Below are positions 1,307-15,990 of a stretch of 22,209 nt of DNA, in pieces; positions within the stretch are counted from its first letter, which is position 1, and the number at the start of each line of letters is the position of its first letter. Source of the DNA: a virus (Duplodnaviria > Heunggongvirae > Uroviricota > Caudoviricetes); IMG/VR virus record IMGVR_UViG_2526164633_000039; one strand, given 5' to 3'. The notes under the pieces were generated by a model, which worked only from the letters and a program-made list of their open reading frames with translations, was not told where the DNA came from and searched no databases. The position numbers and the translations under genes were made by a program.

Positions 1307-3778
1307 TTAAAAATCAGCCTGACTCGGGAGCAGTTTTTGCCAGATGGCTGAAACGTATTTCGCCTGGTAACGTGCATCGTTCAGAGCGTTATGGCGTTCA
1401 CCTTCGAATGGAATAGTCGTTCTTGCGTCGAAATCCATCACCAGTCCCAGAGCAACCATCGTTCTTACATCGCGATCATTGGTGTAACGCCACGGGCAGG
1501 GGATCCCCTGCCGTTCATATGAACGGCGTAAAATCACGTTGTCGAAAGTTGCACCGTTACCCCAGACCTGAACAAAAAATTCACCGGAGTTTTCGTCGAT
1601 AAATTCCCGCAATTGTAACAGTGCATCATCTAACGGGATTTCATCGGTCATAATGGCAGATTGCGCTTCGCGTGATTGCTTAAGCCACCATTTAATGGTG
1701 TCCCGATCAATGACTCCGCCAGCAGTTTCCAGATCAATAGTCTTACTAAATTCCGGTCCCATATCTCCGGTTTGCGGATCGAAAAATATTGCACCTATTG
1801 AGATAATCGGGGCATCAGGATTTTTTCCCATGGTTTCAAGGTCGATCATTAGATGGTCACACGTCCTGCTGGTGGATGTGATAACGTGATGACCGTTCAC
1901 CGTAATTAAGGGATCTGCCGTCTCGCCAGTTTCACTATCGCTGGCGTGATCCTGAGCGCTACCAGCATTCTCCTTGTGTGGATGTTCAGCGCCTTCCATT
2001 TCCTCCGGATCATTTTCCTGAACTTCAACCTGATTCTCTTCATCGAATGTTTCCTGGTATGTTGCGTCACCCATCACCGCGCCACAATCATGGCAGTTGC
2101 CACCACCGCTTTGACCGCAGGCGGTGCAGACTTTTTCCGGTTCCTGTTGCGCTACTGGCTCAGGTTGTTTCGTTTCTGGCTCGTTTTGTTGCGTATTTGG
2201 GCTGTTTTGTTCCGCTTTCTGGTCGTTCTGTTCCGATTCTTGCTGGTTCTGGTTTACAGAATCGCGGGTTTCCATCCCCTTTACCCATTTCGGATCATTC
2301 GGGTCGCTAATCCCTGCAACAAATTCTCCGCGAGAGGCAGCAAGCAACTTATCGGCGTCAGGCTGGCTGATATTGGCTGCCTGCATAATTTTGTTTACTT
2401 CGTCAGCGGTAACTTTTACCGGCTCTGGTTGTGCGGTCGTGTCAGATGCACCAGTATTTTGTTGTGAACCTGAGTATGTACTGTTTTTGCGGGCGAAATA
2501 TTCTTCTTTCGTGATTTCAGTAGCCCCGGCAGCCAGTGCCTTATCCAGACCAGAAAGTTTGTTTGCGCGACCGTATTTTTCGCCATCCTTGTCGGTGAAG
2601 AGGAAGTAGAACGGCCCCTCACGCTCTACAGATGGTTCGACTTCCACTTTGCATTCGGTTTTTTCGTTGTCCGGAATTGCCGTTTCCACTGCATCAGTTT
2701 CTGGTACTGACGACGAGAGAGTATCAGTTGCGCTCTGATTTGTTCCTTCATCTTCAAACACGCCCTTTGTAGTCAGGTATTCAGTAATGTATTTGTTCAG
2801 TGCCACAGGGTCTTTGTGAATGTCGATCGGACGTTCACGGACAAGGCCAAAAATAGTCTGGCGGTCGTAGCGAAGGGCATCAGGCTGTTTGCGCATTGAT
2901 GTCGAGATACGCTTCCAGTCTTCGCGGTCGTTGTCGATAACTTCATTTTTTGCCCAGCGATGGATGCTGCCGTCAATGTTTCCGGCATCCACATCACCAG
3001 GCCAGAGAGCGTAGGCCAGTTCGTCATCCAGTGTTTTCCATGTCTGCTTGTATTCGCGATGAATGGCAGCAATGACCAGGCTGATTTTTCCTGTTGAATT
3101 TTCAGTGTGCTGTTGATTGACTCTGGCGCGGGCGAGATCAACAACAGACGTGTATTTTCCGGTTTCCTTGCGTTCACCTTCGCGACGTTTTTTCCAGATG
3201 CGCATCTCTGCCTGAATTTCGGGCCATTTGGCACCAGGCTTACATTTATGCTTAACCCACCCGATGGCATGCAGCTTAAGCTCCGGATACATGGCGTTAA
3301 CTTCTGGCATTTTCATCAACGCTTCAACGATATGTCCGTCGAATGTTGCCATGTCTTCCTGCAACAATTCCTGTGCGCTAATAACCATATCAACGGTGAT
3401 GTTTTCACATGTGTCGAACTTAACCATGACAGCGTTCTGTACTTCAGGGGCCAGCTTGTCAAAAGTGACGTTCATCGGATCGGATTCAGTCTCAACCGGG
3501 ACAAAGGAAGCAGACTCCTCATCCCAGCGGTTTTCCTGCATATATTCAGCATCCCAGGAATCGAGGGCAGGGCGGGGTATGCCGGGTTTATCCTCACAGA
3601 CAATAAATTTATAAGCGCAGTCCTGAGCTGCAGGGAATTGCTCCAGAAATTGCCAATGAAATTTTGCGCGTGCGCGACGCTCATCACCAGCTTCAATGGC
3701 AGTGGCCACCGCAACAGCGCTATCTTCTTTTATGGCCTGTTCATCAGGAATAGCAGCGCAAATAAAGACTTTACTCAT
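1307..3778 (-). CDS. Large phage exonuclease (823 aa) with a C-terminal DnaQ-like DEDDh 3'-5' exonuclease domain, a Cys4 cluster and an acidic low-complexity linker
   Basis: ATG at 3776-3778 with GAGGT about 9 nt upstream. C-terminus shows [12 protein letters not shown] and HNALNDARY motifs typical of DEDDh exonucleases. [16 protein letters not shown] suggests a zinc ribbon. Sits between int and the dicB operon, as in EHEC-type lambdoid prophages. Confidence 0.65.
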
Positions 3779-3870
3779 TTTGTTTTACCTCATTACAGAT
3801 TTAAGGGTGAACAAATCCCTGCCATTGCTGGCATATAAGAATGAAACCGGATATTTATTACGGAACTGTT

Positions 3871-4062
3871 TTAAAGACCTGCCGGGATTTCGTTATTATC
3901 CTGGTGAATAACTTTATCGACCGGGTAACAGTTACCGGGAATTTTCTGTTCGGTTGCTGCAGTCACACACTCCTGCATTGTCCTGTGAACACTGACTGCA
4001 ATATCAACTGGCTCTCCGGAAACAAGAAAAACTGTCAGAACAAGTGCAAATGCTGTATTCAT
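3871..4062 (-). CDS. ydfD: Small protein (63 aa) with N-terminal hydrophobic segment, YdfD-like (Qin prophage lysis protein) by position and size
   Basis: Start ATG at 4060-4062 overlaps the dicB-like stop as ATGA. Protein MNTAFALVLTVFLVSGEPVDIAV... Sits immediately downstream of dicB as in Qin. Name is from recollection. Confidence 0.5.
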   Translation of the reverse strand: MNTAFALVLTVFLVSGEPVDIAVSVHRTMQECVTAATEQKIPGNCYPVDKVIHQDNNEIPAGL

Positions 4063-4247
4063 TGCCAGCATCCTTTTTGTATCGGACGTAAACGGGCCAG
4101 CATTGAAAGAATGCATATTTTATTTAATAACTCCCGTTCGTGTTTTCTCTTGTTAATGGCATCTTCAGTAAATACAGGGTTACTGATAGTGACACCAATT
4201 TCAAAACAACCTTCAGACGTATTAACGTTTGGTAATAACGTTTCCAT
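4059..4247 (-). CDS. dicB: DicB-like cell-division inhibitor (62 aa)
   Basis: Internal ATG of track ORF 4059..4352 at 4245-4247, preceded by GAGGA. Protein METLLPNVNTSEGCFEIGVTISNPVFTEDAINKRK... matches my recollection of E. coli DicB. DicF lies just upstream. Confidence 0.65.
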   Translation of the reverse strand: METLLPNVNTSEGCFEIGVTISNPVFTEDAINKRKHERELLNKICILSMLARLRPIQKGCWQ

Positions 4248-4427
4248 TATCGCGTCCTCAACAATGAATTTTGTGATGCGATGCCTGGTGCCTCCAGGTG
4301 ACGTTAACCAGTTAACAATTAACGCCGGATACAGAGAATCCACCCATAACACTGTTTTTGGTTTTAACTGTTCCGCGTGCGCTCAGCCGCATTCACCACA
4401 TCACAAAATTCACTTTAAAAAGGGCGG

Positions 4428-4485
4428 CAGAGCAGTCACGGAGTAAAACTGATACCGCCAAACGTCACCAGAAAATTGATAACAG
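4428..4485 (-). ncRNA. dicF: DicF small regulatory RNA (ftsZ-targeting) with intrinsic terminator
   Basis: Reverse complement of 4433-4485 reads TTTCTGGTGACGTTTGGCGGTATCAGTTTTACTCCGTGACTGCTCTGCCGCCC followed by a T-run, matching the DicF sequence as I recall it. GGCGG...CCGCC forms the terminator stem. Confidence 0.65.
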
Positions 4486-4815
4486 AGGGCGTTGCAGCGG
4501 GGTTGTCACTTAAGCGTATGGTCAACCTGACAACCCGGTGTCCTCAACGGGGGAAGGAATAACCCCGCCATACTTACCGCCGCGCCATTTCGCGGATTGC
4601 CACAACCGGAAGCGCACGGTCGACGAAAATTTAACGACAGGCTATCTATGAACCAGCTACCTCGCCGTGCGCTTTCGCGTTATGGTCTGACTTTTCAGGG
4701 AAATATCCTTTCAGTAAACTGTCAATGCCGGATGCTCACCCATGTCCGGCGCACGCACTCCACCTCACCCGTGGAGAACTCCTTAATTACCAACCTTAGC
4801 TTCGTTGGTTAGCTA

Positions 4816-5034
4816 TTAACGCGGGTATGTAATCATTCTGGCAATGCTTAATGCCGCTGCTTTTTCCAGCCTGGTGATATCCTGCTCCAGAGCGGACAGA
4901 TTTTCAGCCTGCTTAGCCCTGGCTTCATTGGCCCATTTCAGATCCTGCGCTGCATTAATTTTCTGGCGCATCCACTCATAAAGTTCATCATCGGTATAGT
5001 CTGGCGAGATGATGACGGGTTCTCGTTTCTGCAT
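4816..5034 (-). CDS. Hypothetical 72-aa protein (YdfC-like by size and position)
   Basis: Track ORF with GAGGAA RBS upstream of the ATG at 5032-5034. Third small gene upstream of dicF in the dicB-type operon. Confidence 0.45.
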   Translation of the reverse strand: MQKREPVIISPDYTDDELYEWMRQKINAAQDLKWANEARAKQAENLSALEQDITRLEKAAALSIARMITYPR

Positions 5035-5063
5035 ACTGATTCCTCGCGGTGCTGCTTCGCTTA

Positions 5064-5192
5064 TCAGCCGTTAGATTTTGCCGAGCTGGAAAGCGCCTGT
5101 TTAAACTCACTGAAGCTGAGAGCTTCTTCGCCTTCGGCAAGGCCTTCGAAGTATTCTTCGTAAGCCTTTTCCATGATTGTGTCGAAATCCAT
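5064..5192 (-). CDS. Hypothetical 42-aa acidic protein (YdfB-like by size and position)
   Basis: Not in the track (<60 aa). Hand translation of the minus strand gives MDFDTIMEKAYEEYFEGLAEGEEALSFSEFKQALSSSAKSNG, with an AGGTGA RBS before the ATG at 5190-5192. Fits tightly between neighbouring genes. Confidence 0.4.
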   Translation of the reverse strand: MDFDTIMEKAYEEYFEGLAEGEEALSFSEFKQALSSSAKSNG

Positions 5193-5193
5193 A

Positions 5194-5349
5194 TCACTCA
5201 CCTGAGTTTCTTTCCAGCCAGCGACGGGCACCATTTTCGGTTTTAAACGTTTTGCTTCTGGTATACGTCATCGCGGTAAACGTGCCGTCCTGGTTGGGAA
5301 ACACGCCGCATACCAGAGATTCGTTGTTGCCAAGATCGATAGTATTCAT
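5194..5349 (-). CDS. Hypothetical 51-aa protein (YdfA-like by size and position)
   Basis: Internal ATG at 5347-5349 of track ORF 5194..5403 with GAGG 6 nt upstream. Protein MNTIDLGNNESLVCGVFPNQDGTF... First gene after the operator-bearing intergenic region. Confidence 0.45.
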   Translation of the reverse strand: MNTIDLGNNESLVCGVFPNQDGTFTAMTYTRSKTFKTENGARRWLERNSGE

Positions 5350-5429
5350 GCTGACCTCATTTCCCCTTAACGCCGGGGTAGCGGAACTGTTTGCTGAGAA
5401 CACCGTGCGGTGTCTTGGTGGAGATTAAT

Positions 5430-5481
5430 TTAGAATAACCTAACAAATGTAGCAAGTATTTTTGTTAGATTGGTCTAACAA
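5430..5481. promoter_or_regulatory. Two palindromic operator-like sites (TTAGAATAACCTAACA and TTGTTAGATTGGTCTAACAA) upstream of the early-left small-gene operon
   Basis: 5462-5481 is a perfect 8+4+8 inverted repeat sharing the TGTTAG/CTAACA half-site with the sites at 5927-5991. Consistent with a repressor-controlled promoter of the dicB-type operon. Confidence 0.4.
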
Positions 5482-5516
5482 AAAGAGTGAGGGAATCTAA
5501 GTATCTGAAAGGAGTG

Positions 5517-5924
5517 TTATTTTATTGATTTGTTTTTACGTGCTTTAAGCATTTCTTCGAAGAGTTTATTGAAATTCTCTACTCTTGCGCGCATTTCAGA
5601 CAGTAAGGCTTCCTGCTCGGAGGAGGGAAGAGCATCGAATAATTCGATCAATTCTTTGTGGCTGGGAGTTAACTCGGTTTCCACATGAAGTTCTTGTGCT
5701 GGCACTGGTGCCTTGTCTTCGTCACCAAACATTAGCCATGTAGGCGAGCACTTCAGCGCATCAGCTAAAGCAAATAACCGCTTCCCGACCGGTTGGGTTT
5801 CGTCTCTTTCCCATTGTGAAATTGTGACGTGAGCTACCCCAGCGAGGCGTGCAGCTTCTCGTTGTGTTAGGCGTAATTCTTTTCGTCGTGCCAGAACTCG
5901 CTGGCCTAGGGTTCTTGTATCCAT
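5517..5924 (-). CDS. dicA: XRE-family HTH repressor, DicA/CI-like (135 aa)
   Basis: ATG at 5922-5924. HTH signature LTQREAARLAGVAHVTISQWERDE. C-terminal CSPTWLMFGDEDK and EMRARVENFNKLFEEMLKAR resemble DicA as I recall it. Divergent from a Cro/DicC-like gene. Confidence 0.7.
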   Translation of the reverse strand: MDTRTLGQRVLARRKELRLTQREAARLAGVAHVTISQWERDETQPVGKRLFALADALKCSPTWLMFGDEDKAPVPAQELHVETELTPSHKELIELFDALPSSEQEALLSEMRARVENFNKLFEEMLKARKNKSIK

Positions 5925-5926
5925 AG

Positions 5927-5991
5927 TTAGGTAATTCTAATTTTTCTTGACTTAGGTATCCCGCGCACATTACTGTTAGGAATATCTAACA
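5927..5991. promoter_or_regulatory. Divergent promoter/operator region with palindromes TTAGGTAATTCTAA (5927-5940) and TGTTAGGAATATCTAACA (5974-5991)
   Basis: Inverted repeats with the same half-site as 5430-5481, lying between the divergent repressor and cro-like genes. A TTGACT -35-like hexamer sits at about 5947-5952. Confidence 0.45.
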
Positions 5992-6004
5992 AGAGGGGGC
6001 TTTG

Positions 6005-6232
6005 ATGCTTAAAGTTGACGCAATTACTTTTTTTGGCAGCAAAACAAAACTTGCCAATGCCGCAGGAGTGAAACTGGCAAGTGTTGCTGCATGGGGGGAA
6101 CTGGTTCCTGAAGGTCGCGCGATGCGCCTGCAAGAGGCATCCGGCGGGGAACTTCAGTACGACCCCAAAGTTTATGACGAATATCGTAAGGCAAAGCGGG
6201 CGGGGCGGTTGAACAATGAAAATCACCCCTGA
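6005..6232 (+). CDS. dicC: Cro/DicC-like small DNA-binding protein (75 aa from ATG; TTG at 6002 possible)
   Basis: AGAGGGGG RBS 5-8 nt upstream of the ATG at 6005. Divergent from the repressor. Sequence MLKVDAITFFGSKTKLANAAGVKLASVAAW... is YdaS/DicC-like. Confidence 0.6.
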   Translation: MLKVDAITFFGSKTKLANAAGVKLASVAAWGELVPEGRAMRLQEASGGELQYDPKVYDEYRKAKRAGRLNNENHP

Positions 6233-6737
6233 ACAGGTTTGTGAGGCTCTGGATGCCTGGGTATGCCGACCAGGAATGACACAGGAGCAGGCGACGATAT
6301 TAATCACGGAAGCATTCTGGGCTCTGAAAGAACGCCCGAACATCGATGTTCAACGCGTCACGTTTAATGATGGCGAGGTTGATCAACGGGCGTTGGGCGT
6401 TAACCGGGTGAAGATATTCGAACGCTGGAAAGCTATCGACACCAGGGATAAGCGGGAAAAATTCACGGCGCTGATTCCGGCAATTATGGAGGCTATCCGG
6501 ATCAGCGATTTCAGGTTGTATTGTGAAATTACTGACGGAAAAAGCATTACGTACATGATCGCCGGGTTAAACAAAGAATATGGTGATGTGGTGGAGTCCG
6601 GGCTGCTTTTTGCGGATCCATCTGTTGTGGAACGTGAGACTGACGAGCTTATAGAAAAAGCTATTGCTTTCAAGCATGCGTATCGTCAGCAATACCAACA
6701 AAAAGCTGGATGGAATTATGAGCCTTCTTTTTGCTGA
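6216..6737 (+). CDS. Hypothetical 173-aa protein in the cII position (possibly YdaT-family)
   Basis: Track ORF overlapping the end of the dicC-like gene. Family assignment is a weak recollection only. Confidence 0.4.
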   Translation: MKITPEQVCEALDAWVCRPGMTQEQATILITEAFWALKERPNIDVQRVTFNDGEVDQRALGVNRVKIFERWKAIDTRDKREKFTALIPAIMEAIRISDFRLYCEITDGKSITYMIAGLNKEYGDVVESGLLFADPSVVERETDELIEKAIAFKHAYRQQYQQKAGWNYEPSFC

Positions 6738-7683
6738 ACGCCCACTGGTTATAAACACACAGCTTGCGATGAAGATTGGCTTAAATGAAGCCATTGTGTT
6801 GCAGCAGTTGCATTACTGGTTGAGAGATACCAGTTCCGGTATGGAATGTGACGGGGTTCGCTGGATTTATAACACAACAGAACAATGGCTGGAACAGTTC
6901 CCGTTCTGGTCAGAGTCAACGTTAAAACGCGCATTTGCAAGTCTGAAAACGCTGGGGCTTTTGCGTTGCGAAAAGCTCAACAAATCAAAGCGTGATATGA
7001 CTAATTTTTACACGATTAATTACGAGAGTGAGCTTTTAGATGGTGGCAAAGTGAGCGAATCCATCAGGTCAAAATGCGCCGCTCCATCGGGTCAAAATGA
7101 CACGATGGAAGAGGTCAAAATGGCACGCTCCATTGGTTCAAAACGACCCAATGTCATCGGGTCAAAATGGCCTGATGATCTTACAGAGAATACAACAGAG
7201 ATTACTACAGAGAATAAAAACACTTCTCGTCCGGAAGCTTCGCAACCGGACCCGCAGACGGCTGAACAGGATTTTTTAACCCGACACCCTGACGCGGTTG
7301 TGTTCAGTGCGAAAAAACGCCAGTGGGGAAGTCAGGAAGATTTGGCGTGCGCACAGTGGATCTGGGGACGAATCGTGAGTCTTTACGAGCAGGCTGCCAG
7401 CGATGATGGCGAGATCACGCGACCGAAAGAACCAAACTGGACCGCATGGGCCAATGACGTGCGCACAATGCGGATGCTGGATGGCAGAAGCCACAGACAA
7501 ATTTGCGAAATGTTTGGTCGGGTACAGCGAGATCCATTCTGGGTAAAAAACATCATGAGCCCGTCAAAGCTTCGCGAAAAATGGGACGACCTGGTCATCC
7601 GCCTGGGGCGTTCACCTGTACAGTGTTGTGTGAATCATATTTCTGAACCGGATACCGAAATTCCGCCTGGTTTCAGGGGATAA
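6718..7683 (+). CDS. Replication initiator, phage O-like, with origin iterons embedded in the coding sequence
   Basis: Start chosen at the ATG at 6718 (MSLLFAERPLVINTQLAMKIGLNEAIVLQQLHYWL, winged-helix-like N-terminus); alternative starts at 6664 and 6676. Contains five about 17-bp repeats at 23-bp spacing followed by an AT-rich tract, as in lambda O/ori. Confidence 0.6.
   Translation: MSLLFAERPLVINTQLAMKIGLNEAIVLQQLHYWLRDTSSGMECDGVRWIYNTTEQWLEQFPFWSESTLKRAFASLKTLGLLRCEKLNKSKRDMTNFYTINYESELLDGGKVSESIRSKCAAPSGQNDTMEEVKMARSIGSKRPNVIGSKWPDDLTENTTEITTENKNTSRPEASQPDPQTAEQDFLTRHPDAVVFSAKKRQWGSQEDLACAQWIWGRIVSLYEQAASDDGEITRPKEPNWTAWANDVRTMRMLDGRSHRQICEMFGRVQRDPFWVKNIMSPSKLREKWDDLVIRLGRSPVQCCVNHISEPDTEIPPGFRG
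7060..7169. repeat. Iteron array: five copies of about TCCATCGGGTCAAAATG at 23-bp periodicity (candidate replication origin)
   Basis: Copies start near 7060, 7083, 7106, 7129 and 7152 (TCCATCAGGTCAAAATG, TCCATCGGGTCAAAATG, GAAGAGGTCAAAATG, TCCATTGGTTCAAAACG, TCATCGGGTCAAAATG). An A/T-rich ACAGAGAATA-type tract follows at 7176-7240. Confidence 0.65.
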
Positions 7684-7723
7684 GTGGTGATTTTAGGGCA
7701 TAAAGTAATGTTCAGGAGGACTT

Positions 7724-8131
7724 ATGGCAAAAGTATTTACACAGGAAGAGCGGGAAAAAATTAAAGGACAGGTGGTGGAACTCGTGCGCCAGAGCGGTCG
7801 TGAGACGTTACGGCAACTGGAAGCTAAAACAGGTGCGACAAGATATCTGATGAGCGTTCTTGCCAGAGAGCTGGTTGCCAGTGGTGATGTATATCACTCT
7901 GGCTATGGGGTGTTCCCGTCAGAACGGGCTCGTAAGGACTGGCAAAACGCCCGCAAAAAACTCTCGAGGGCAAAGGTGAAGAAACCTGTTGTGGTTGATC
8001 CGGGCCTTATCTGGACATTACCCGACGGAGAAATACGCCGCTACGACAGGCGTATGAACATAATCTGTCGCGAGTGCCGGAAGAGCGAAGTTATGCAGCG
8101 TGTATTGGCGTTCTATCAGGGATATGCCTAG
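7724..8131 (+). CDS. Hypothetical 135-aa protein, possible winged-helix DNA-binding N-terminus
   Basis: Strong AGGAGGA RBS before the ATG at 7724. No confident family assignment. Confidence 0.5.
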   Translation: MAKVFTQEEREKIKGQVVELVRQSGRETLRQLEAKTGATRYLMSVLARELVASGDVYHSGYGVFPSERARKDWQNARKKLSRAKVKKPVVVDPGLIWTLPDGEIRRYDRRMNIICRECRKSEVMQRVLAFYQGYA

Positions 8132-8177
8132 AATTGTCACAGGTAATGAAATTAAAGAGTATTGGTTCGGATATGAA

Positions 8178-8206
8178 TTGACATTTTCGCGGCACAGAGC
8201 TAAAAA
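8178..8206 (+). promoter_or_regulatory. Candidate sigma70 promoter (TTGACA, 17-bp spacer, TAAAAA) directed toward the SIR2-like gene
   Basis: TTGACA at 8178-8183, 17-nt spacer, TAAAAA(T) at 8201-8207, about 290 bp upstream of the 8500 start codon inside an AT-rich non-coding stretch. Confidence 0.3.
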
Positions 8207-8499
8207 TAGCCTACTTGTTGGTTTTGTGTGAAAAGCAGACATTTTGAGGCTCAGGATTTGTTATCAAATAAGACCAATACTTATCTATATTAATACACAT
8301 TAAATACTGTGCAATACATTATTGCATTTTATTAGATAAGCGATATTTAGGGAAAAGAAAAGTCATAGAAAACAGGCCGCTATTTGTTGTTGGATTTTAT
8401 AGGCTATATCTAGATTATCTTGCCACTGCGGTCTCTGTTTACCTAACAGCTTGGGCTTCTTTGCATGCAAGTTTGTAATAACAAGAGTAATCAAACGGA

Positions 8500-9531
8500 A
8501 TGTCTATTAATCCTAAACTTAAGCGTATCGCGCGACGCTATCCAGCGTTATTCCAATATGAGTCCCCCTATATGGCAAGAAAATTAATAATATTCGGCAA
8601 CGGTCTCGGTATGGCTTTAGATCCTGCTCACTTCTCCTTAGACAGAGCGTTGGAAGAAATTTGGCATCGCCCCAATTTTTTAAAAGATATCCACAAGCAA
8701 CTTATCGAGCGTTGTCTTCAGCGGCAAGGTCCACCAGAAGGAGAACATGAGTTGGATACCCTTCACCAGGCTGTCACATATTGTAAAGCTCTTGCTCAAA
8801 TTGGAGAGGGGAACGTGCATTGGCTTACTGAAGATGGACTAAACTTCCCCAAAATTACCGCCACTTATATTCACAAAGTTGCAACCAGGTTGCATAATTA
8901 CGATAAAGGTTTGCCACAAAGATTCGAAAATGCGCTTGTGGAGTTTGTAAAGAACACACACTCACATATCGCGACATTAAACTATGACAAATTATTATAC
9001 AATTCATTCATAGATAATGATATATTCAACGGGTATGATGGGGTTTTAGTTGATGGGATGCTAAGCCACGGATTTTCCTCTGCAGCGCTCGAACGGAAAT
9101 ACAATCGTAGGTTTGGTTATTATTTGCACTTGCATGGTTCACCACTATTTATTAATCAGCATGAAAATGTTTTAAAACTTTCACGCTCACAACTTACTCT
9201 TGACATAGATGAACCTAGTGAGCATATAGTGTTAACTCATATAAAAAGAAAACCGTCAGTTATAGCAGCATCTAATGTTCTTTCTACGTACTGGGATTAT
9301 TTGCAGTTTGCATTATTTGAATCAGAAGAAATAATATTGTTTGGTTACTCTGGTCTCGATATTCACCTTAACCTGCTTATTCGACCTTACCTAACCTCTA
9401 AGCCTTTAAGAGTAATTGAGTGGAGCGGTGCTGGTGAACAAAACGCTCGTGAGATATATTGGAAAAACCAGTTGAGACGGGAAGTTACTGTAATTAGGTT
9501 GGATAACATCACTGATTTTATTGATTGGTAG
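8500..9531 (+). CDS. SIR2-like (sirtuin-fold, SIR2_2/DUF4020-type) protein, 343 aa; candidate NAD-consuming anti-phage defence effector
   Basis: Motifs read directly from the translation: glycine-rich IIFGNGLGMA (aa 30-39), IATLNYD (Asn161), YLHLHGS (His210/His212), ILFGYSGLDIHL (aa 279-290). These match the order and spacing of defence-associated SIR2 domains. Coding GC is far lower than the flanking prophage (about 32% in sampled 60-nt stretches). Confidence 0.65.
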   Translation: MSINPKLKRIARRYPALFQYESPYMARKLIIFGNGLGMALDPAHFSLDRALEEIWHRPNFLKDIHKQLIERCLQRQGPPEGEHELDTLHQAVTYCKALAQIGEGNVHWLTEDGLNFPKITATYIHKVATRLHNYDKGLPQRFENALVEFVKNTHSHIATLNYDKLLYNSFIDNDIFNGYDGVLVDGMLSHGFSSAALERKYNRRFGYYLHLHGSPLFINQHENVLKLSRSQLTLDIDEPSEHIVLTHIKRKPSVIAASNVLSTYWDYLQFALFESEEIILFGYSGLDIHLNLLIRPYLTSKPLRVIEWSGAGEQNAREIYWKNQLRREVTVIRLDNITDFIDW

Positions 9532-9601
9532 CGCAATGCGAAGTTAAAGAGGCAGCCTCATATTTATCAGAGCTGGTGTACGTCCAATACAGGAGGTTAT
9601 C

Positions 9602-9691
9602 GTGCTGGTTCTCAAATGCGCGCTGGCTATTGCGGCTGTAGTGGCAATTTATTGTCTTGCTATTGTTCTTATGGATCGCCTTTCTGATTGA
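9602..9691 (+). CDS. Small hydrophobic peptide (29 aa, GTG start), possible membrane-active type I toxin-like peptide
   Basis: Perfect AGGAGG at 9591-9596, 5 nt before the GTG at 9602. Translation (M)LVLKCALAIAAVVAIYCLAIVLMDRLSD is one predicted TM helix plus a short charged tail. Not in the ORF track (<60 aa). Confidence 0.4.
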   Translation: MLVLKCALAIAAVVAIYCLAIVLMDRLSD

Positions 9692-9902
9692 TTTTATATT
9701 GGCGAGGTGACGGGAGTTAAGTAGAATTGCTGCGGGTGCTTGAGGCTGTCTGCCTCGGGCATGCCACCGTAAGGCAGACAGAGAAAAGCCCCAGTTAACA
9801 TTACGCGTCCTGCAAGACGCTTAACATTAATCTGAGGCCCAATCTATGCTTCACAAACGTAGGTTAGCCTCTTACGCGCCGAAAGGCAAGGAGAAGCAGG
9901 CT

Positions 9903-10058
9903 ATGAAGCAGCAAAAGGCGATGTTAATCGCCCTGATCGTCATCTGTTTAACCGTCATAGTGACGGCACTGGTAACGAGGAAAGACCTCTGCGAGGTACG
10001 AATCCGAACCGGCCAGACGGAGGTCGCTGTCTTCACAGCTTACGAACCTGAGGAGTAA
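9903..10058 (+). CDS. hokD: Hok/Gef-family type I toxin (51 aa), HokD/RelF-like
   Basis: MKQQKAMLIALIVICLTVIVTALVTRKDLCEVRIRTGQTEVAVFTAYEPEE has the Hok TM segment and conserved Cys. An in-frame upstream extension from 9846 is mok-like. A perfect 10-bp leader hairpin lies at about 9745-9780. Confidence 0.8.
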   Translation: MKQQKAMLIALIVICLTVIVTALVTRKDLCEVRIRTGQTEVAVFTAYEPEE

Positions 10059-10126
10059 GAGACCAGGCGGGGGAGAAATCCCTCGCCACCGCTGATGTGT
10101 CAGGCATCCTCAACGCACCCGCACTT

Positions 10127-10150
10127 AACCCGCTTCGGCGGGTTTTTGTT
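10127..10150 (+). terminator. Rho-independent terminator downstream of hok
   Basis: AACCCGC-TTCG-GCGGGTT stem-loop followed by TTTTGTTTT. Confidence 0.6.
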
Positions 10151-10273
10151 TTATTTTCAACGCATTTGAAGTTCTGGACGGTGTCGGAATAGAATCAAAA
10201 ATACTTAAGTAGCGCGCAGGGATAAGAGGGATGGTCCCTTAAAGGGGAGAGCTAATTATCCGGAAGGATTCTG

Positions 10274-10525
10274 ATGATGAACATCGAAGAACTGCGTAAA
10301 ATTTTTTGTGAAGATGGCCTCTATGCTGTGTGCGTTGAAAATGGAAATATTGTTAGTCATTACCGCATTGTGTGTTTGCGAAAGAATGGGGCTGCGTTAA
10401 TTAATTTTGTGGATGGTCGAGTGACAGACGGATTTATCTTGCGCGAAGGTGAGTTTGTCACTTCATTACAGGCACTGAAAGAGATCGGAATAAAAGCTGG
10501 CTTTTCTGCTTTTTCAGAAGAATAA
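10274..10525 (+). CDS. rem: Hypothetical 83-aa protein, Rem-like (Qin prophage rem neighbour of hokD) by size and position
   Basis: GGAAGGA RBS before ATGATG at 10274. Lies immediately downstream of hok as in Qin. Identity rests on recollection and synteny. Confidence 0.45.
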   Translation: MMNIEELRKIFCEDGLYAVCVENGNIVSHYRIVCLRKNGAALINFVDGRVTDGFILREGEFVTSLQALKEIGIKAGFSAFSEE

Positions 10526-10591
10526 ACTCATCTACAATCTTGCGCGGGGCTGAACTCCCGCTGAGTAACACCGTGCCGCCGGAGGAAACCG

Positions 10592-10870
10592 ATGGCACGC
10601 AACGCAAAATATTACAATCATGATAATTCGACCGTTCTTGCCCACACGCACGAGCGGTATTCTCACGCATTTAAGTCAGACTGGTACCAGCATCCCCCAT
10701 GCACTGAAGAACAGGCCGAATGGCTCATTCAGTGTTACCGCAGGCGCGGATGCGAGGTTAAAAAAGCCCTTAGCCTCGACTACCGTCACTGGATAATCTC
10801 CGTCGGGCTTCCTTACTCCGAACGCCCACCGCGTCTGTCCCGCACATTCCAGCAACGCATCTGGAGGTAA
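10592..10870 (+). CDS. Hypothetical 92-aa protein
   Basis: Strong GGAGGA RBS before the ATG at 10592. Stop abuts the GTG start of the following gene. Confidence 0.5.
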   Translation: MARNAKYYNHDNSTVLAHTHERYSHAFKSDWYQHPPCTEEQAEWLIQCYRRRGCEVKKALSLDYRHWIISVGLPYSERPPRLSRTFQQRIWR

Positions 10871-10871
10871 C

Positions 10872-11611
10872 GTGCGGGTATTACTTCGACCTGTTCTGGT
10901 ACCGGAACTCGGGCTGGTGGTCCTTAAGCCCGGTCGCGAATCACTGCCGGTTTTTCATTGCGGCAGGGTGCTGGTGGAGCCGGAACCGAAAAGCATGCGC
11001 GGTCTGCCGTCCGGAGTCGTCCCTGCCGTTCGCCAGCCGCTGGCGGAGGATAAATCATTACTGCCATTTTTCAGCGATGAGCGTGTGATTCGTGCTGCTG
11101 GCGGCGCTGGCGCACTGTCTGACTGGCTCCTGCGTCATGTCAAATCCTGCCAGTGGCCTCATGGTGACTACCATCACAGTGAAACCGTCATACATCGTTA
11201 TGGTACCGGCGCAATGGTGTTGTGCTGGCACTGCGACAACCAGCTGCGCGACCAGACCTCCGAATCACTCGGGCAACTTGCTCACCAAAACCTGTCTGCA
11301 TGGATGATTGACGTCATACGCCATGCAATGAATGGCTCGCAGGAACGGGAATTATCGCTGGCTGAATTATCCTGGTGGGCGATCCGCAATCAGGTGGCGG
11401 ACGCGCTACCGGAAGCGGTATTACGTCGTTCGCTGGGGTTGCGTGCGGAAAAAATCCGCTCAATGTACCGTGAAAGCGACATCGTACCGGGAGAGCAGAC
11501 CGCCACCAGCATACTGAAACAGCGCACAAAAAATCTTGCGCCGCTGCCTCACGCCCACCAGCAACAGAACCCGCCACAGGAAAAGACGGTGGTCAGCATT
11601 GCTGTTGATCC
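10872..11611 (+). pseudogene. ydfU: YdfU/DUF968-like gene, 5' portion, interrupted by IS66-family insertion
   Basis: Reading frame runs into the IS and terminates at a TAA created by the IS terminus (GTAAGCG). After removing the IS and one copy of the 8-bp duplication it continues in frame into 14324..14633. Confidence 0.6.
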
Positions 11612-11641
11612 GTAAGCGGCTCGCCAGAACCGTATTGATAT

Positions 11642-13213
11642 TTACTGAGAGGTCAGATCAACTTTCCAGGGCAACAGATCGCGTACCCGGTTTGCCGGCC
11701 AATCCTGGATATGCTCAATGACGTAACGCAGCCATTTTTCTGGTTCCACATTGTTCAGACGGCATGTGCCGATCAGCGAGTACAACACCGCCGCATGTTC
11801 GCCACCGCTGTCGGAACCCGCGAACAGCCAGTTTTTCCGGCCTACGGCCACTCCCCGTAAGGCGTTCTCTGCGATGTTGTTGTCGATTTCCACCCAGCCA
11901 TTACTGCAGTACACGTTCAGGCCATCCCACTGTTTCAGCAGGTATGCGAACGCTTTTGCCGTATCCGAGTGACGCGACAGTGTTTTCATCTGAGTCTGTA
12001 TCCAGTCATACAGTGACTGCATCAGTGGCGCAGCTCTGGCTTTTCTTGCCGCCAGACGCTGTTCTGCTGTACATCCCCGGACTTCTGCCTCTATGGCATA
12101 CAGTTCACCGATACGCTGCAGGGCTTCCGTGGTGATGTCGGTGGGCACTCTTGCATGCACATCGTGGATTTTTCTCCGGGCATGAGCCATACACGCGGCT
12201 TCCGTTATTCTGCCGGATTCGTATAACACCCGGTAACCACCGTAAGCATCGGCCTGAAGCACACCGCTGTAACCGGCCAGATGATTTTGTGGATGGATAC
12301 CTTTCCGGTCCGGTGAGTACGCGAACCAGACCGCCGGGGGCATTTCCGAACCGGCGTTACGGTCATCACGGACGTAGACCCACAGCCGGGCGGTCCGGGT
12401 TTTACCGCTGCCCGGCTCCTGGACCGGGACGGGGATATCATCAGCATGGACTTTACCGGGCATCAGCACATACTGGCGCAGGACGTCATACAGCGGCTCC
12501 AGCAGTTCAGCAACGGCACCTGTCCAGCGCCCCAGCGTGGCGCGGCTCAGCTCCACGCCCTGGCGACGGTATATTTCTGACTGGCGGTATAACGGCAGAT
12601 GGTCTGCATATTTCCCGGTAACAACATGGGCCAGAAGCCCCGCTCCGGCATAACTGCGTGCAATGGGTTTTGAAGGTACTGTTGCCTGCACGATATGGTC
12701 GCACCGACAACAGGCCAGTTTCGGACGTTGTGTTTCGATAACCTTAAAGGCGCTGCTGATAAGCTCCAGTTGCTCTGACACATCACACCCCAGAGGACTG
12801 AGGTCACCACCACAGGCCGGGCAGCATTCCTCTTCCGGCCGGATGACCCGGGTTTCACGGGGAAGTGAGGCCGGTAACGGTTTACGGGCTGAAGACTGGC
12901 GCAGGGCGGATGGCAGTACCGGGTCATATTGCTCACCCAGCGTTTCCGCCATTTCTTCCTGAAGTGCGCTGATTCGCTCCTGTGCTTCCTGTATCTGCCG
13001 TTCGGTTTTAGCGCGAAGTTTTTCTGAGCTTTTACCGAACTGCATGCGCTGCAGTTTCGCAACCAGCGCCTTCAGCCGGTTGATTTCGGAAGCATAAGCC
13101 GCCACCCGCTGTGAGAGCAGGCGGTTGTATTTCGCCATCTGGCGGATGGTGTCCTGTTGCGTCTGCAACAGTGCCCGCAGGCGGGCATTCTCATGAGCAA
13201 GTGAGGTGTCCAT
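11642..13213 (-). CDS. tnpC: IS66-family transposase TnpC (523 aa)
   Basis: Intact ORF with N-terminal coiled-coil/leucine-zipper-like region, a Cys-rich zinc-finger region (CPACGG...CCRCDH) and conserved IS66 transposase core. Confidence 0.9.
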
Positions 13214-13232
13214 ATCCTCACTTTACAACGGG

Positions 13233-13580
13233 TTATATGCGGATGCCAGCGCGTTCCGTTCGTTTCGGGTGCTTCCAGTCGATGCCTTCGAGAAGCATGG
13301 ACAACTGAGCCGGAGTAAGGTGAACCTTTCCATCGCGGGTGACCGGCCAGACGAAGCGGCCCCGCTCCAGGCGTTTGGTGAAGAGGCACAGTCCGTCACT
13401 GTCAGCCCACAGCACTTTTATCTGGTCACCCCGGCGTCCGCGGAAGATGAACAGATGCCCGGAGAACGGGTCATCCTTCAGGACGTTCTGAACTTTTGAG
13501 GCCAGGCCGTTAAAGCCATTTCGCATATCGGTGATACCGGCAACCAGCCAGATACGCGAACCGGCAGGGAGAGATATCAT
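13233..13580 (-). CDS. tnpB: IS66-family accessory protein TnpB (Orf2, 115 aa)
   Basis: MISLPAGSRIWLVAGITDMRNGFNGLASKVQ... is typical IS66 Orf2. Start overlaps the tnpA stop. Confidence 0.9.
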   Translation of the reverse strand: MISLPAGSRIWLVAGITDMRNGFNGLASKVQNVLKDDPFSGHLFIFRGRRGDQIKVLWADSDGLCLFTKRLERGRFVWPVTRDGKVHLTPAQLSMLLEGIDWKHPKRTERAGIRI

Positions 13581-14230
13581 CAGTGGCTGCTCCCTTTCAT
13601 TTCGCGGATAAGTGTCTGTAATAACGCCGGTGTCAGTTCACCTTTCAGCCTGAGAGTTCCGGCCGGCAGAACCAGCTCGCAGCACAGACTGTCTGGCAGT
13701 GTATTTATCTGTTCAGGTATCTGCACTGGTGCCGGGATTTTATTATCCGGCTCCGGAGTTAACGTCACGGGAAGTAGCGATGTTTCATGTTCGCCGGGCG
13801 GTTGCAGGCCACCGTTACGCCAGAGATGCCGCCAGTTAAAGAGCAGGTTATCGTTAATTCCATTCTCTCGAGCTATTTGTGCGACACAGGCACCGGGTAA
13901 AAGAGTTTGCTGAACCAGTCTCCATTTAAACTCCGGTGAAAATCGGTTCCGGCGGGGTTTCTCTGCTTTCACAGGCTGAGTCACGGTCGGGGCTGAAGGG
14001 TATCGCCCCGGGAAAAGAGCCCGGGCCAGTTGCCCGCAGGAATATTCACCGGAAAGAGGCCAGTCAGTGAATACCTGGTGAAATCGCCTCACCAGAGAAA
14101 AAATGGCGGTTTTGCTGACACCAGTCTGCGCAGAAATGCGCGGGTACGACAGTGACTCGTCAAATCTCAGCTGTAGCACACGCAGGATCAATTCTGGATT
14201 ATCTGCCAGTACCGCTTTTCGTGCATTCAT
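13580..14230 (-). CDS. tnpA: IS66-family accessory protein TnpA (Orf1, 216 aa as drawn; a shorter internal start is possible)
   Basis: First ORF of the element, with an HTH-like N-terminus. ATG at 14228-14230. Confidence 0.75.
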   Translation of the reverse strand: MNARKAVLADNPELILRVLQLRFDESLSYPRISAQTGVSKTAIFSLVRRFHQVFTDWPLSGEYSCGQLARALFPGRYPSAPTVTQPVKAEKPRRNRFSPEFKWRLVQQTLLPGACVAQIARENGINDNLLFNWRHLWRNGGLQPPGEHETSLLPVTLTPEPDNKIPAPVQIPEQINTLPDSLCCELVLPAGTLRLKGELTPALLQTLIREMKGSSH

Positions 14231-14323
14231 CTTAAATGTCCTTTTACTGCGAAAATGGACATTAGTATCGGAAACAGGAAAGGGAGGCGAAAGACGGTTT
14301 AAATGATGCGCTTACGTTGATCC

Positions 14324-14633
14324 GGAGTCTCCGGAATCTTTAATGAAGCGACCTAAACGTCGCCGTTGGGTAAATGAGAAATATACGCGCTGGGTAAAGA
14401 CACAGCCGTGTGCGTGTTGTGGTAAGCCAGCCGACGATCCCCATCACCTGATTGGTCATGGTCAGGGCGGAATAGGGACAAAAGCCCACGATATTTTCAC
14501 GCTACCGTTGTGCCGGGAGCATCACAACGAACTTCATGCTGATCCGCTGGCATTTGAAGAAAAGCATGGTTCCCAGATTGATTTAATTTTTCGTTTTCTT
14601 GATCGCGCCTTTGCAACCGGCGTGCTCGGGTAA
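14324..14633 (+). pseudogene. ydfU: YdfU/DUF968-like gene, 3' portion (Cys/His-rich C-terminal domain)
   Basis: In-frame continuation of 10872..11611 once the IS is removed. Contains CACCGKPADDPHHLIGHGQGG...CREHHNELH. Confidence 0.6.
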
Positions 14634-14645
14634 AAGAGGTTACTG

Positions 14646-15005
14646 ATGCGTATAGAGTTTGTTTTGCCTTACCCGCCGACGGTGAACACCTACTGGCGAC
14701 GTCGTGGCAGCACATATTTTGTGTCAAAAGCCGGTGAGCGTTATCGCCGGGATGTGGCACTTATTGTTCGCCAGCAGCGGCTGAAATTAAACCTGTCCGG
14801 AAGGCTGGCGATAAAGATTATTGCAGAGCCACCGGATAAGCGCCGCCGCGACCTGGACAATATCCTGAAGGCACCACTGGATGCGCTTACGCATGCCGGA
14901 CTACTTATAGACGACGAGCAGTTTGATGAAATCAATATTGTGCGCGGTCAGCTCGTTTCTGGTGGGCGGCTGGGCGTGAAGATTTACAAAATTGAAAGTG
15001 AGTGA
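14646..15005 (+). CDS. rusA: RusA Holliday-junction resolvase (119 aa)
   Basis: AGAGG RBS. Protein carries PPTVNTYWRRRG and RRRDLDNILKAPLDALTHAGLLIDDEQ, matching RusA motifs including the catalytic DxD region. Confidence 0.85.
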   Translation: MRIEFVLPYPPTVNTYWRRRGSTYFVSKAGERYRRDVALIVRQQRLKLNLSGRLAIKIIAEPPDKRRRDLDNILKAPLDALTHAGLLIDDEQFDEINIVRGQLVSGGRLGVKIYKIESE

Positions 15006-15568
15006 GCATAAATATGATATACCCGGAAATTACAGGCAAAAGCGGTGAGCATTTACGCCTGAAAACGCTGGAAAGTGTCTGGATCCAGGGGAAACTGCGT
15101 ATGTGGGGGCGTTGGTCGTATATTGGCGACGGTAAGACGGGAAATATGTTCAACCAATTACTGACCTCTAAAAAGCTGACAAAAACGGCAATTAACGAGG
15201 CGCTCCGGAGGATGAAAAAAGCGGGTCTGGACAAACCTGAACTTGAGGCTTTTTTGCGGGATATGATCAACGGCAATCAAAAAAGCTGGCTGGCACATTG
15301 TACCGATTCAGAGGCGTTAATAATCGACAGGGTTATTGGTGAAGTACTGGCAGGTTATCCCGGGCTGCTCAATGTTCTGAGTCAGCGTTATGTGGGGCGG
15401 GGGATGACTAAGCGCAAAATGGCTGAACTGCTGAATGATGCACATCCGGAATGGAGTTTAAGAACCTGTGAAAGACGCATTGAGCATTGGCTAAAGGTGG
15501 CAGAATTTATTTTGTACAAACCAATGGTTATGGCTTTTGGTATAGAGAAAAAAGTTATTGCTTTTTGA
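15002..15568 (+). CDS. Putative late-gene antiterminator (Q-like) assigned by position; function not confirmed from sequence
   Basis: GTG at 15002 overlaps the rusA stop; alternative ATG at 15014. Located between rusA and a hairpin plus T-run, where Q and tR' sit in lambdoid phages. No strong motif recognised. Confidence 0.4.
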   Translation: MSINMIYPEITGKSGEHLRLKTLESVWIQGKLRMWGRWSYIGDGKTGNMFNQLLTSKKLTKTAINEALRRMKKAGLDKPELEAFLRDMINGNQKSWLAHCTDSEALIIDRVIGEVLAGYPGLLNVLSQRYVGRGMTKRKMAELLNDAHPEWSLRTCERRIEHWLKVAEFILYKPMVMAFGIEKKVIAF

Positions 15569-15645
15569 CGTAAAAACTGCTTCAATTCCGGTAAGCTTCG
15601 CAAAGCTGTACCGCGAGGCGAATAGCAGACATGGACATTTGAAAG

Positions 15646-15669
15646 AGCCCGCTTTTTGCGGGTTTTTTT
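15646..15669 (+). terminator. Intrinsic terminator-like hairpin (possible tR'-like element)
   Basis: CCCGC-TTTTT-GCGGG followed by a 7-T run at 15663-15669. Confidence 0.4.
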
Positions 15670-15780
15670 ATGACTGAAAAACGGCACGGGGCGTTAAACG
15701 CGCTGGTGGTTGCTAATACCGGTCTTTCAACTTGCTGGCTTTTTCGACAAGAGTTATTGGTATGTCACGTTAACCGGAAA

Positions 15781-15990
15781 ATGGAAAAAGGCATGCTAAA
15801 ACAGCAGGATATGACCGAAACCGCCAGAGTGGTGTTTAATGAATTAAGCGTCACCGAACCGGCGACCGCCGGGGAAATTGCGCAGAACACTTATCTTTCA
15901 CGCGAACGCTGCCAGTTAATACTGACCCAGCTTGTTATGGCGGGTCTGGCAGATTATCAGTTCGGTTGTTACAGACGCCTTCCTCAGTGA
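15781..15990 (+). CDS. Hypothetical small protein (start uncertain; track ORF begins at 15670)
   Basis: Track ORF 15670..15990; the upstream ATG lies inside the terminator T-run, so an internal start (15781 or 15793) seems more plausible. Confidence 0.3.
   Translation: MEKGMLKQQDMTETARVVFNELSVTEPATAGEIAQNTYLSRERCQLILTQLVMAGLADYQFGCYRRLPQ

Follow-up and report, generated by a model that had tools for sequence, protein, structure and literature searches.

Results

Organisation of the locus

The window, a stretch of 22,209 nucleotides from a Caudoviricetes record (IMGVR_UViG_2526164633_000039), carries a gene for a SIR2-like protein in a slot between a DUF977 gene and a hok/sok locus. The features of this region are as follows.

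7724..8131 (+), DUF977 gene (Pfam DUF977, 1.7e-29), conserved left flank of the slot, outside the cassette
8223..8571 (+), AT-rich upstream block that travels with the gene, presumed to be its own promoter and 5' UTR, including the optional extension 8500-8571
8500..8571 (+), in-frame extension of 24 codons with an ATG at 8500, the start of the 343-aa form
8572..9531 (+), SIR2-like CDS of 319 aa plus stop, a single domain, RefSeq WP_000101550.1 ("SIR2 family protein")
8596..8610 (+), glycine-rich, dinucleotide-binding loop GNGLG following strand beta-1 (aa 9-13 in the 319-aa form, 33-37 in the 343-aa form)
8974..8988 (+), TLNYD motif, aa 135-139, with N137 (N161 of the 343-aa form) as the predicted catalytic Asn
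9127..9141 (+), HLHGS motif, aa 186-190, with H188 (H212 of the 343-aa form) as the predicted catalytic His, directly before the Gly
9343..9360 (+), GYSGLD motif where a Rossmann strand ends, aa 258-263
9734..10059 (+), type I toxin-antitoxin locus hok/sok, complete, conserved and bounding the slot on the right (Rfam sok, 116 bits, E 3.9e-27)
9904-10059 (+), annotated hokD CDS within the hok/sok locus

The open frame of 343 aa at 8500..9531 on the plus strand, from which an earlier note on this DNA had numbered the residues, is indeed present in the window. As judged from sequence comparison, 8572 (M25, giving 319 aa) is more likely than 8500 to be the true start, because RefSeq begins the CDS there, nearly all homologs begin at the equivalent position, with the 24-codon extension missing in most of the family, and the substitutions in the extension are spread evenly across codon positions (e.g. 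16/8/15, compared with 15/7/41 in the gene body). The extension, whose ATG and open frame are retained in five diverged copies, is probably untranslated or dispensable. With the start at 8572 the numbering falls by 24; the two residues singled out in the earlier note, N161 and H212, therefore stand as residues but become N137 and H188, their former numbers being probably 24 too high.

Fold and conserved motifs

The protein has a SIR2 fold with the catalytic Asn/His motifs. All four motifs that the earlier note had read from the letters (in the 343-aa numbering FGNGLG at aa 32-37, TLNYD at 159-163, HLHGS at 210-214 and FGYSGLD at 281-287) were found, and they vary little or not at all in the two homolog sets, of 31 and 89 sequences, in which conservation was scored. 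Among the 89 homologs GNGLG, which sits after the strand aa 4-8 in the AF2 model, is nearly invariant; HLHGS is invariant in 89/89 and forms the lowest-entropy block of the protein, while G258, G261 and D263 are invariant and Y259 and S260 nearly so. Within TLNYD, which is located in the SIR2_2 match region, L136, N137, Y138 and D139 do not vary in either set, and T135 hardly does. The catalytic role of N137 and H188 is one that we assume from ThsA N112/H152 and DSR2 N133/H171.

The Pfam and structural comparisons proposed in the earlier note both point to SIR2. In the Pfam scan SIR2_2 (PF13289) is the sole domain, with a match above the gathering cutoff, though marginal (26.1-26.3 bits against 24.5), and the same model is matched by 89/89 relatives. 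The AF2 model (pLDDT 90.9, pTM 0.89) is of Rossmann type and has a glycine-rich loop following beta-1, as expected of the SIR2 superfamily (DHS-like NAD-binding fold). NADase effectors account for all of its closest structures, the best Foldseek matches being Sir2 of Sir2-HerA/Nezha (E 3e-11) and not DSR2. A sequence-profile search of the PDB based on the family alignment matched no SIR2 chain, so the family is tied to the solved structures through fold comparison only. Every profile match is marginal, the best PADLOC E for the protein being 3e-6, and searches of NCBIfam and PHROGs gave no family for it.

A mobile cassette in a variable slot

Homology to the copy at locus L083, which lies in an unrelated context adjoining TacA/TacT, begins at window position 8223, and genomes that do not have the SIR2 gene rejoin the conserved right flank at about 9549. 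Because 9549-9733 belongs to a conserved module that precedes hok/sok and is found also in prophages without the SIR2 gene, it falls outside the cassette. The unit is thus a 1.3-kb cassette, 8223-9545, instead of the 8132-9700 first proposed. It contains no partner ORF, in agreement with the earlier observation that no second large ORF or partner domain accompanies the gene, and the AT-rich island described at the same time was borne out, GC being 38.9% in the gene and 35.5% in the upstream block against 48-52% in the flanks. In 71/75 loci the SIR2 gene is likewise AT-richer than its own flanks. The upstream block is kept in L090 and L083 and in part in L087; since its indels are not multiples of three, it holds no conserved small ORF. 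Neither a conserved small antitoxin ORF nor a known RNA was found upstream of the gene, and a sigma-70 consensus scan of 8223-8571 gave no strong or convincing site, so that the gene's own promoter is putative.

The gene behaves as a mobile cassette and as prophage cargo. The 1.3-kb unit was seen in at least three unrelated contexts, and the gene on 21 IMG/VR viral contigs, at varied positions in unrelated prophages; a search of 50,697 deposited phage genomes did not find it, and the viral structure library held no close match to the protein. Among 5426 E. coli genomes 46 have the gene, invariably in the DUF977-hokD slot, where two alleles occur and the ORF is intact in 46/46. DUF977 anchors the slot on its left also in prophages with other cargo, such as DUF5677, QueH with a methyltransferase, and others; in K-12 Qin the slot is occupied by relBE, as anticipated by the earlier note, which had placed toxin-antitoxin cargo there in Qin-type prophages. 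Comparison across genomes supports the view of the slot as a variable cargo hotspot. The SIR2 gene lies on the strand of the early-right operon, and the window prophage, one of E. coli, is damaged by two IS66-family insertions.

Neighbours and family

Partners were sought by clustering the ORFs of 80 related loci from many phyla, and no conserved neighbour emerged, the best non-SIR2 cluster being present in 6 loci. A Pfam/PADLOC scan of 132 flanking ORFs gave a mixture of defence, mobile and housekeeping genes, none of them recurrent; in other loci the SIR2 gene lies beside, among others, integrases, type I R-M, AriA, MADS, PtuA-like and GajA-like proteins. The SLOG, DSR C-terminal domain, HerA, pAgo and TIR that had been found wanting at this locus are absent from the window and from the 80 related loci as well. 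NAPRTase (pncB) adjoins the SIR2 gene in four Rhodobacteraceae loci; a metabolic link is disfavoured, the SIR2 copies lying 11-14 GC points below their flanks, and an insertion site is therefore likelier than an operon.

The family forms a discrete group of about 200-350 clusters at 50% identity (357 representatives); among the representatives listed, almost all measure 310-365 aa and the longest does not exceed 397 aa. The gene is under purifying selection (dN/dS 0.08-0.16), and conservation spans the whole protein including the helical insertion, with a mean column identity of 62%. Two subclades carry an extra module, fused N-terminally in Vibrio and encoded in Alphaproteobacteria by an upstream gene, c1, with stop and start overlapping, so the bare SIR2 core may sometimes be insufficient. 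The Vibrio extension and the c1 protein show no Pfam domain and are mutually unrelated. Neither was found fused to other effectors, the extension being without relatives and c1 having 16 standalone clusters only, and an argument from modular swapping was dropped for this reason.

A literature search returned no paper on the 319-aa SIR2 family and no match for WP_000101550, and tests of the family are absent from Vassallo 2022, Rousset 2022, Hochhauser 2023 and DefensePredictor 2026; the domain-centric screen of 2026, which excluded single genes, reported none either. The earlier suggestion that the protein may be uncharacterised was put too strongly in one respect, since the gene carries the name "SIR2 family protein" in RefSeq.

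Discussion

SIR2 NADases rank among the commonest effectors of bacterial immunity and, to our knowledge, the well-studied ones are all switched on by a separate sensor, be it SLOG with TIR, the DSR C-terminal domain, HerA, pAgo or STAND. The nearest structure to the window protein is the Sir2 subunit of Sir2-HerA (Nezha / Gao_Her), with 275/319 residues aligned, and the PADLOC SIR2 models of that system match at E ~5e-5; however, the sequence identity is 13-17%, the window protein is ~60-80 aa shorter, and the adjacent HerA gene of Sir2-HerA has no counterpart in the window and none recurrent in the 80 related loci. ThsA (Thoeris) has a C-terminal SLOG and the TIR partner thsB, whereas the window protein is single-domain and its cassette has no TIR or SLOG gene. 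KomC (Kongming) is driven by KomA/B and the SIR2 effector of Avs5 by a STAND ATPase, none of which is found here, and DSR1/DSR2 reach ~1000 aa with a large non-SIR2 sensor domain that the 319-aa protein does not have. SPARSA pairs SIR2-APAZ with an adjacent short pAgo; here there is neither pAgo nor APAZ, and the weak PADLOC match to Aga_SIR2 (E 3e-6) is confined to the SIR2 part.

The classical sirtuin deacylases (CobB/Sir2Tm/SIRT1-7) carry a Cys4 zinc ribbon, which is absent here since the protein has only two Cys (48 and 71), and the classical Pfam SIR2 (PF02146) gave no match at E<=1. DUF4917 (PF16263) is likewise a standalone SIR2-like family of similar size, and several sources label homologs "DUF4917 family protein"; it is matched weakly by 57/89 relatives (best E 1.5e-8) and by the window protein not at all at E<=1. 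One DUF4917 member, SliP of C. jejuni, has been reported as a secreted histone deacetylase, a role for which the window protein gives no support. The PADLOC single-gene defence candidate PDC-S21, with a profile of 336 positions, is similar in length to the family and is matched weakly by 72/89 members (~23 bits for the window protein, family best E 3.5e-9, ~60% profile coverage); on these matches we regard the window protein as a relative of PDC-S21 and not a member. The literature search found no mention of PDC-S21, and we know of no experimental test of it.

The closest precedent for the concept is sole-Sir2, a standalone Sir2 protein of ~440 aa from a CRISPR-supervised immune system (CRISIS), proposed as anti-phage; it breaks down NAD+ in vitro, and one of its close homologs protects against T2 and T4 (bioRxiv 10.1101/2024.12.27.630466). 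Both are small standalone Sir2 proteins encoded by a single gene. By its described architecture, a separate N-terminal non-Sir2 domain followed by a DSR2-like C-terminal Sir2 domain (bioRxiv 10.1101/2024.12.27.630466), sole-Sir2 is set apart from the 319-aa window protein, which is SIR2 from end to end and Sir2-HerA-like instead of DSR2-like. As sole-Sir2 is already reported to act alone, the concept of a standalone-Sir2 defence is not new.

We propose, at slightly better than even chances, that the gene is a prophage-borne, single-protein abortive-infection NADase defence; the NADase activity, the defence role and the mode of switching on are what we infer for this protein. A 319-aa SIR2-fold NAD+ glycohydrolase would be expressed in the lysogen from its own upstream region and held inactive until a superinfecting phage triggers it. 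The triggered enzyme would hydrolyse NAD+ to ADP-ribose and nicotinamide via N137 and H188, and the loss of NAD+ would starve phage replication. In favour of this reading stand the SIR2 fold with its conserved motifs, the absence of partner genes and extra domains, the behaviour as a mobile cassette and as prophage cargo, the purifying selection, and the precedent of sole-Sir2. Against it count the marginal profile matches, the absence of the gene from the deposited phage genomes, the weak DUF4917 matches among relatives in view of the deacetylase role reported for SliP, and the extra modules of two subclades. Analogy with ThsA, KomC, Avs5 and the Sir2 of Sir2-HerA suggests activation through a change in oligomeric state. 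Neither a sensor domain nor a trigger nor an autoinhibitory element could be identified; candidates for sensing the trigger are the helical insertion (aa 23-130), which is conserved, and the surface segments aa 196-210 and 286-315, which vary, although conservation as strong throughout as that seen here would be out of the ordinary in a protein that senses fast-evolving phage proteins directly. It is conceivable, if somewhat short of probable, that these proteins are minimal SIR2 immune proteins in which a single domain of ~320 aa both detects infection and depletes NAD+, forming a discrete, widely transferred family carried as cargo by diverse temperate phages. For a single domain without sensor, partner or signalling input, sensing would have to reside in the SIR2 fold itself, for instance as trigger-induced oligomerisation via the helical insertion.

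A SIR2-fold enzyme could also serve the prophage without bulk depletion of NAD+, by modifying a host or phage protein as an NAD-dependent ADP-ribosyltransferase or deacylase. We consider this unlikely, given the missing zinc ribbon and the two Cys, the failure of both classical SIR2 and DUF4917 to match the protein, and nearest structures that are all NADase effectors. That the protein is a component whose partner resides elsewhere in the prophage or host, such as a HerA-like ATPase or a signal-producing enzyme acting in trans, would accord with its resemblance over 275 of 319 residues to subunits of the two-gene Sir2-HerA system and with the added modules of two subclades (the overlapping upstream c1 and the Vibrio N-terminal fusion). 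This possibility is nevertheless quite improbable in our view, for no neighbour is conserved in the 80 loci, the cassette moves alone between unrelated contexts, and DUF977 and hok/sok flank other cargo equally.

The SIR2 fold cleaves N-glycosidic bonds in NAD-like nucleotides, which would also suit a selfish or offensive role, either as an addiction-module toxin that stabilises the prophage or as a counter-defence enzyme that works for the phage by breaking down NAD-derived immune signals; relBE can occupy the slot instead, hok/sok adjoins it, and the gene is on the strand of the early-right operon. We give such a role little credence, in view of the lack of a conserved antitoxin ORF in the cassette and of anything similar in deposited phage genomes or the viral structure library, and since the anti-Thoeris and anti-CBASS proteins known to us are sponges or phosphodiesterases, not SIR2. 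That the gene is a decaying, functionless passenger of a degraded prophage is hardly credible: the IS66-family damage to the prophage and the marginal SIR2_2 score would fit, but the intact ORF in all 46 E. coli genomes with two alleles in one slot, the dN/dS values and the family-wide invariance of the catalytic motifs argue against it.

Should the protein prove inactive alone, it would be an ordinary, annotated SIR2-family moron. If, returning to the single-protein defence that we favour, the bare SIR2 domain suffices, it would represent the minimum needed for sensing and response, an easy system for the structural study of SIR2 NADase gating, and an extra defence gene for the lambdoid prophages of pathogenic E. 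coli (O55:H7, O111:H2 and porcine Stx2e strains). The DUF977-hokD slot is in turn marked for the mining of further cargo.

The SIR2-like gene, its start codon and its fold

The 343-aa open reading frame described in the earlier note is present at 8500..9531 (+) and carries, in order, the motifs FGNGLG, TLNYD (N161), HLHGS (H210/H212) and FGYSGLD, all of which vary little or not at all across aligned sets of 31 and 89 homologs. The start at 8500 and the residue numbering built on it probably do not hold, and comparison with homologs points to 8572 as the likelier start. The RefSeq entry ("SIR2 family protein", WP_000101550.1, 319 aa) begins there, and the ATG and open 24-codon frame upstream are kept in one subclade of close relatives (73-89% identical). 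We prefer 8572 because almost all relatives from other genera are 319-325 aa long and start at the equivalent Met, because substitutions are even across the three codon positions in the 24-codon extension (e.g. 16/8/15), those in the gene body being concentrated at third positions (15/7/41), and because a purine-rich GAG/AGG patch lies 9-13 nt 5' of the 8572 ATG in 5/5 copies. With this start N161, H210 and H212 become N137, H186 and H188.

The sole Pfam match to the protein is SIR2_2, a marginal one (26.1 bits, cutoff 24.5), and PADLOC gave weak matches to the models Aga_SIR2, PDC-S21 and SIR2 (E 3e-6 to 4e-4). No match was found in NCBIfam or PHROGs, no SIR2 chain among PDB sequences by profile search, and no close match in a viral structure library. 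SIR2_2 is weakly matched by all 89 relatives and DUF4917, also weakly, by 57 of them. The AlphaFold2 model (89-sequence input, pLDDT 90.9, pTM 0.89) is confident and gives a clearer picture, a single domain with a Rossmann core and a helical insertion of ~100 residues between strands 1 and 2. In Foldseek the Sir2 subunits of Sir2-HerA/Nezha rank first (E 3e-11, TM ~0.6, 13-17% identity), with CobB and SIRT2/5 behind them. Since the protein has only two cysteines, the zinc ribbon of deacylase sirtuins is missing. Conservation peaks in the catalytic strands, and the helical insertion too is strongly conserved. Variation is greatest at aa 196-210 and 286-315, two segments that are candidate recognition surfaces.

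A solitary and widespread family

When 1.84 billion representatives were searched exhaustively with a profile, 357 clusters were obtained at E<=1e-3, including 201 at E<=1e-30, nearly all of 310-365 aa and matched as a single stretch; the family is discrete and set well apart from the remaining SIR2 groups. Close members, 56-89% identical, were found in Pantoea, Serratia, Citrobacter, Klebsiella, Vibrio, Aeromonas, Pseudoalteromonas, Chromohalobacter, Chromobacterium and one Desulfobacteria MAG. A scan of species-representative genomes added copies of 37-53% identity in Pseudomonas, Stenotrophomonas, Xanthomonas, Acinetobacter and many Alphaproteobacteria, and in Chloroflexota, Verrucomicrobiota, Bacteroides and Bdellovibrio.

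As claimed, no second large ORF lies beside the gene, none of substance being present between the DUF977 gene (7724-8131) and hokD. ORF clustering of 80 loci revealed no recurrent neighbour, the top non-SIR2 cluster covering 6 loci. Two additions are confined to particular clades. In six alphaproteobacterial loci (L048, L057, L060, L065, L071, L080) an unannotated ~200-aa protein, c1, is encoded directly 5' of the SIR2 homolog, abutting or overlapping its start. The c1 family comprises 16 clusters, standalone in all, and c1 with the SIR2 homolog may constitute a two-gene variant of the system. Two Vibrio proteins, P0043 (506 aa) and P0051 (541 aa), have an in-frame N-terminal extension of 190-220 aa fused to the SIR2 core; these extensions are homologous (30% identity, E 1.6e-11), no relatives of them were found beyond this pair, and they may represent a sensor module or read-through from an upstream gene. 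Neither c1 nor the extension contains a Pfam domain, the two are mutually unrelated, and the E. coli form has neither.

In four Rhodobacteraceae loci (L064, L072, L073, L076) the homolog lies between pncB (nicotinate phosphoribosyltransferase) and an RF-1-domain (ArfB-like) gene. The GC content of the SIR2 gene is there 11-14 points under that of its flanks, and the locus is therefore probably an insertion site; a tie to NAD salvage is possible.

Proposed function and alternatives

ThsA, DSR1/2, Sir2-HerA, SPARSA and classical sirtuins each have a defining architecture that the protein does not share. In concept it comes nearest to sole-Sir2, a single ~440-aa protein in which a DSR2-like Sir2 domain is accompanied by an additional N-terminal domain; sole-Sir2 degrades NAD+, and one of its close homologs protects against T2 and T4 (bioRxiv 10.1101/2024.12.27.630466). 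The published description of sole-Sir2 sets it apart from our protein, whose architecture and structural affinities differ. The family is annotated but uncharacterised, with a bare-domain architecture; no published test of it was found in the literature searched, a scope that does not extend to the Brenes & Laub 2025 screen. The observation of a standalone SIR2-like gene is confirmed, and its interpretation as a NAD-depleting defence is partly supported. If the family defends alone, it would be a variant of an already known kind of system, with sole-Sir2 as nearest precedent.

The best-supported reading, to which we give somewhat better than an even chance, is that of a prophage-borne, single-protein abortive-infection NADase. 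In this proposal the gene would be expressed from the cassette's own upstream DNA, its product may be switched on by altered oligomerisation, like ThsA, KomC, Avs5 and Sir2-HerA, and NAD+ would be hydrolysed via N137 and H188, by analogy with N112/H152 of ThsA and N133/H171 of DSR2, with anti-phage defence as the presumed role. A weak point is the high conservation of the protein, which would be unusual in a direct sensor of phage.

That the protein is instead a SIR2 enzyme that modifies other proteins, as SirTM or SliP would, we consider unlikely. Dependence on a partner encoded elsewhere is quite improbable, and we attach a similarly small probability to a selfish toxin or counter-defence enzyme. 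A decaying passenger is highly improbable: dN/dS between diverged copies is 0.08-0.16, and the protein is therefore under strong purifying selection, a functional constraint.

A mobile AT-rich cassette

The AT-rich block reported around the gene was recovered, with GC of 35-43% over 8000-9600 versus ~48-52% on both sides (SIR2 gene 38.9%, upstream block 35.5%); among 75 loci the gene is under its flanks in 71, with a median difference of -7.8 points. Comparison with the L083 copy (87% nt identity), which adjoins a TacA/TacT pair, delimits a cassette at 8223-9545 consisting of one gene with ~350 nt ahead of it and 14 nt past the stop; a further copy lies near rpoD and mug. The gene behaves as a cassette and as a moron. 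Neither a conserved small ORF nor a known RNA family was found in the upstream block.

A short palindromic GAGGC...CTCA motif was seen at both cassette ends, at 8245-8253 (TGAGGCTCA) on the left and 9549-9559 (GAGGCAGCCTCA) on the right. So short a match could be due to chance, and the right-hand motif may be a weak terminator hairpin.

In other taxa the homologs are flanked by phage integrases, type I R-M subunits and AriA-, MADS-, PtuA- and GajA-like proteins, interspersed with housekeeping genes. The family is found on 21 IMG/VR viral contigs, where unrelated prophages carry seven distant copies at varied positions (close to a portal gene, behind a tail fibre and a methyltransferase, beside an integrase, near an HNH gene), on 1 of 72,556 plasmids, and in none of 50,697 deposited phage genomes.

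The E. coli prophage and its cargo slot

The window is an E. coli lambdoid prophage of the Qin/DicB type. It shares 99.9% identity at 1-11612 and 98.5% at 14316-20545 with a prophage that O111:H2 strain 12A carries beside yccA. The SIR2 gene is present in 46 of 5426 complete E. coli genomes in two allelic forms, one in 30 genomes (>=99% nt identity) and the other in 16 (~87%), and all copies examined, of both alleles, occupy the slot between the DUF977 gene and hokD. The corresponding slot of K-12 Qin holds relB-relE, in agreement with the toxin-antitoxin cargo named in the earlier note, and that of other prophages a DUF5677 gene, QueH with a methyltransferase, an alpha/beta hydrolase or a DUF7167 cluster. 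The slot is a cargo hotspot, and these four cargoes are more candidates from it; the DUF5677 cargo is a single 341-aa gene (L114 2173-3198). In K_EC180 (L002 8156-9229) and many porcine ETEC/STEC genomes an IS481-family element lies between the SIR2 gene and hokD, and the same prophage type carries Stx2e in porcine strains.

Further features of the window are:

9602-9691, +, hydrophobic ORF of 29 aa with GTG start, MLVLKCALAIAAVVAIYCLAIVLMDRLSD
10067-10148, +, weak, sub-threshold Rfam match to the Hfq-binding sRNA isrK (24.9 bits, gathering score 50, E 0.012)
11613-14315 and 20602-22209, IS66-family element in two direct copies, 94-97% identical

The slot is flanked on the right by a complete hok/sok locus (sok scores 116 bits in Rfam). 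The 29-aa ORF, preceded by a strong Shine-Dalgarno sequence (AGGAGG, 5 nt spacing), belongs to a conserved module between the cargo slot and hok/sok that prophages devoid of the SIR2 gene have as well; the ORF is unmatched in Pfam and could be an unannotated small membrane peptide. The isrK-like match ends in a good intrinsic terminator (10127-10144 and T-run) just 3' of hokD. The first IS66-family copy is complete, with tnpA, tnpB and a 523-aa tnpC on the minus strand. It has duplicated 9 bp of its target (GTTGATCCG) and splits the DUF968 gene, of which a 247-aa stump remains at 10872-11615. The second begins at the position of the strain 12A lysozyme gene and extends to the window end, its tnpC ORF cut to 398 aa. 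With these two insertions the prophage is degraded; the SIR2 gene is nevertheless intact.
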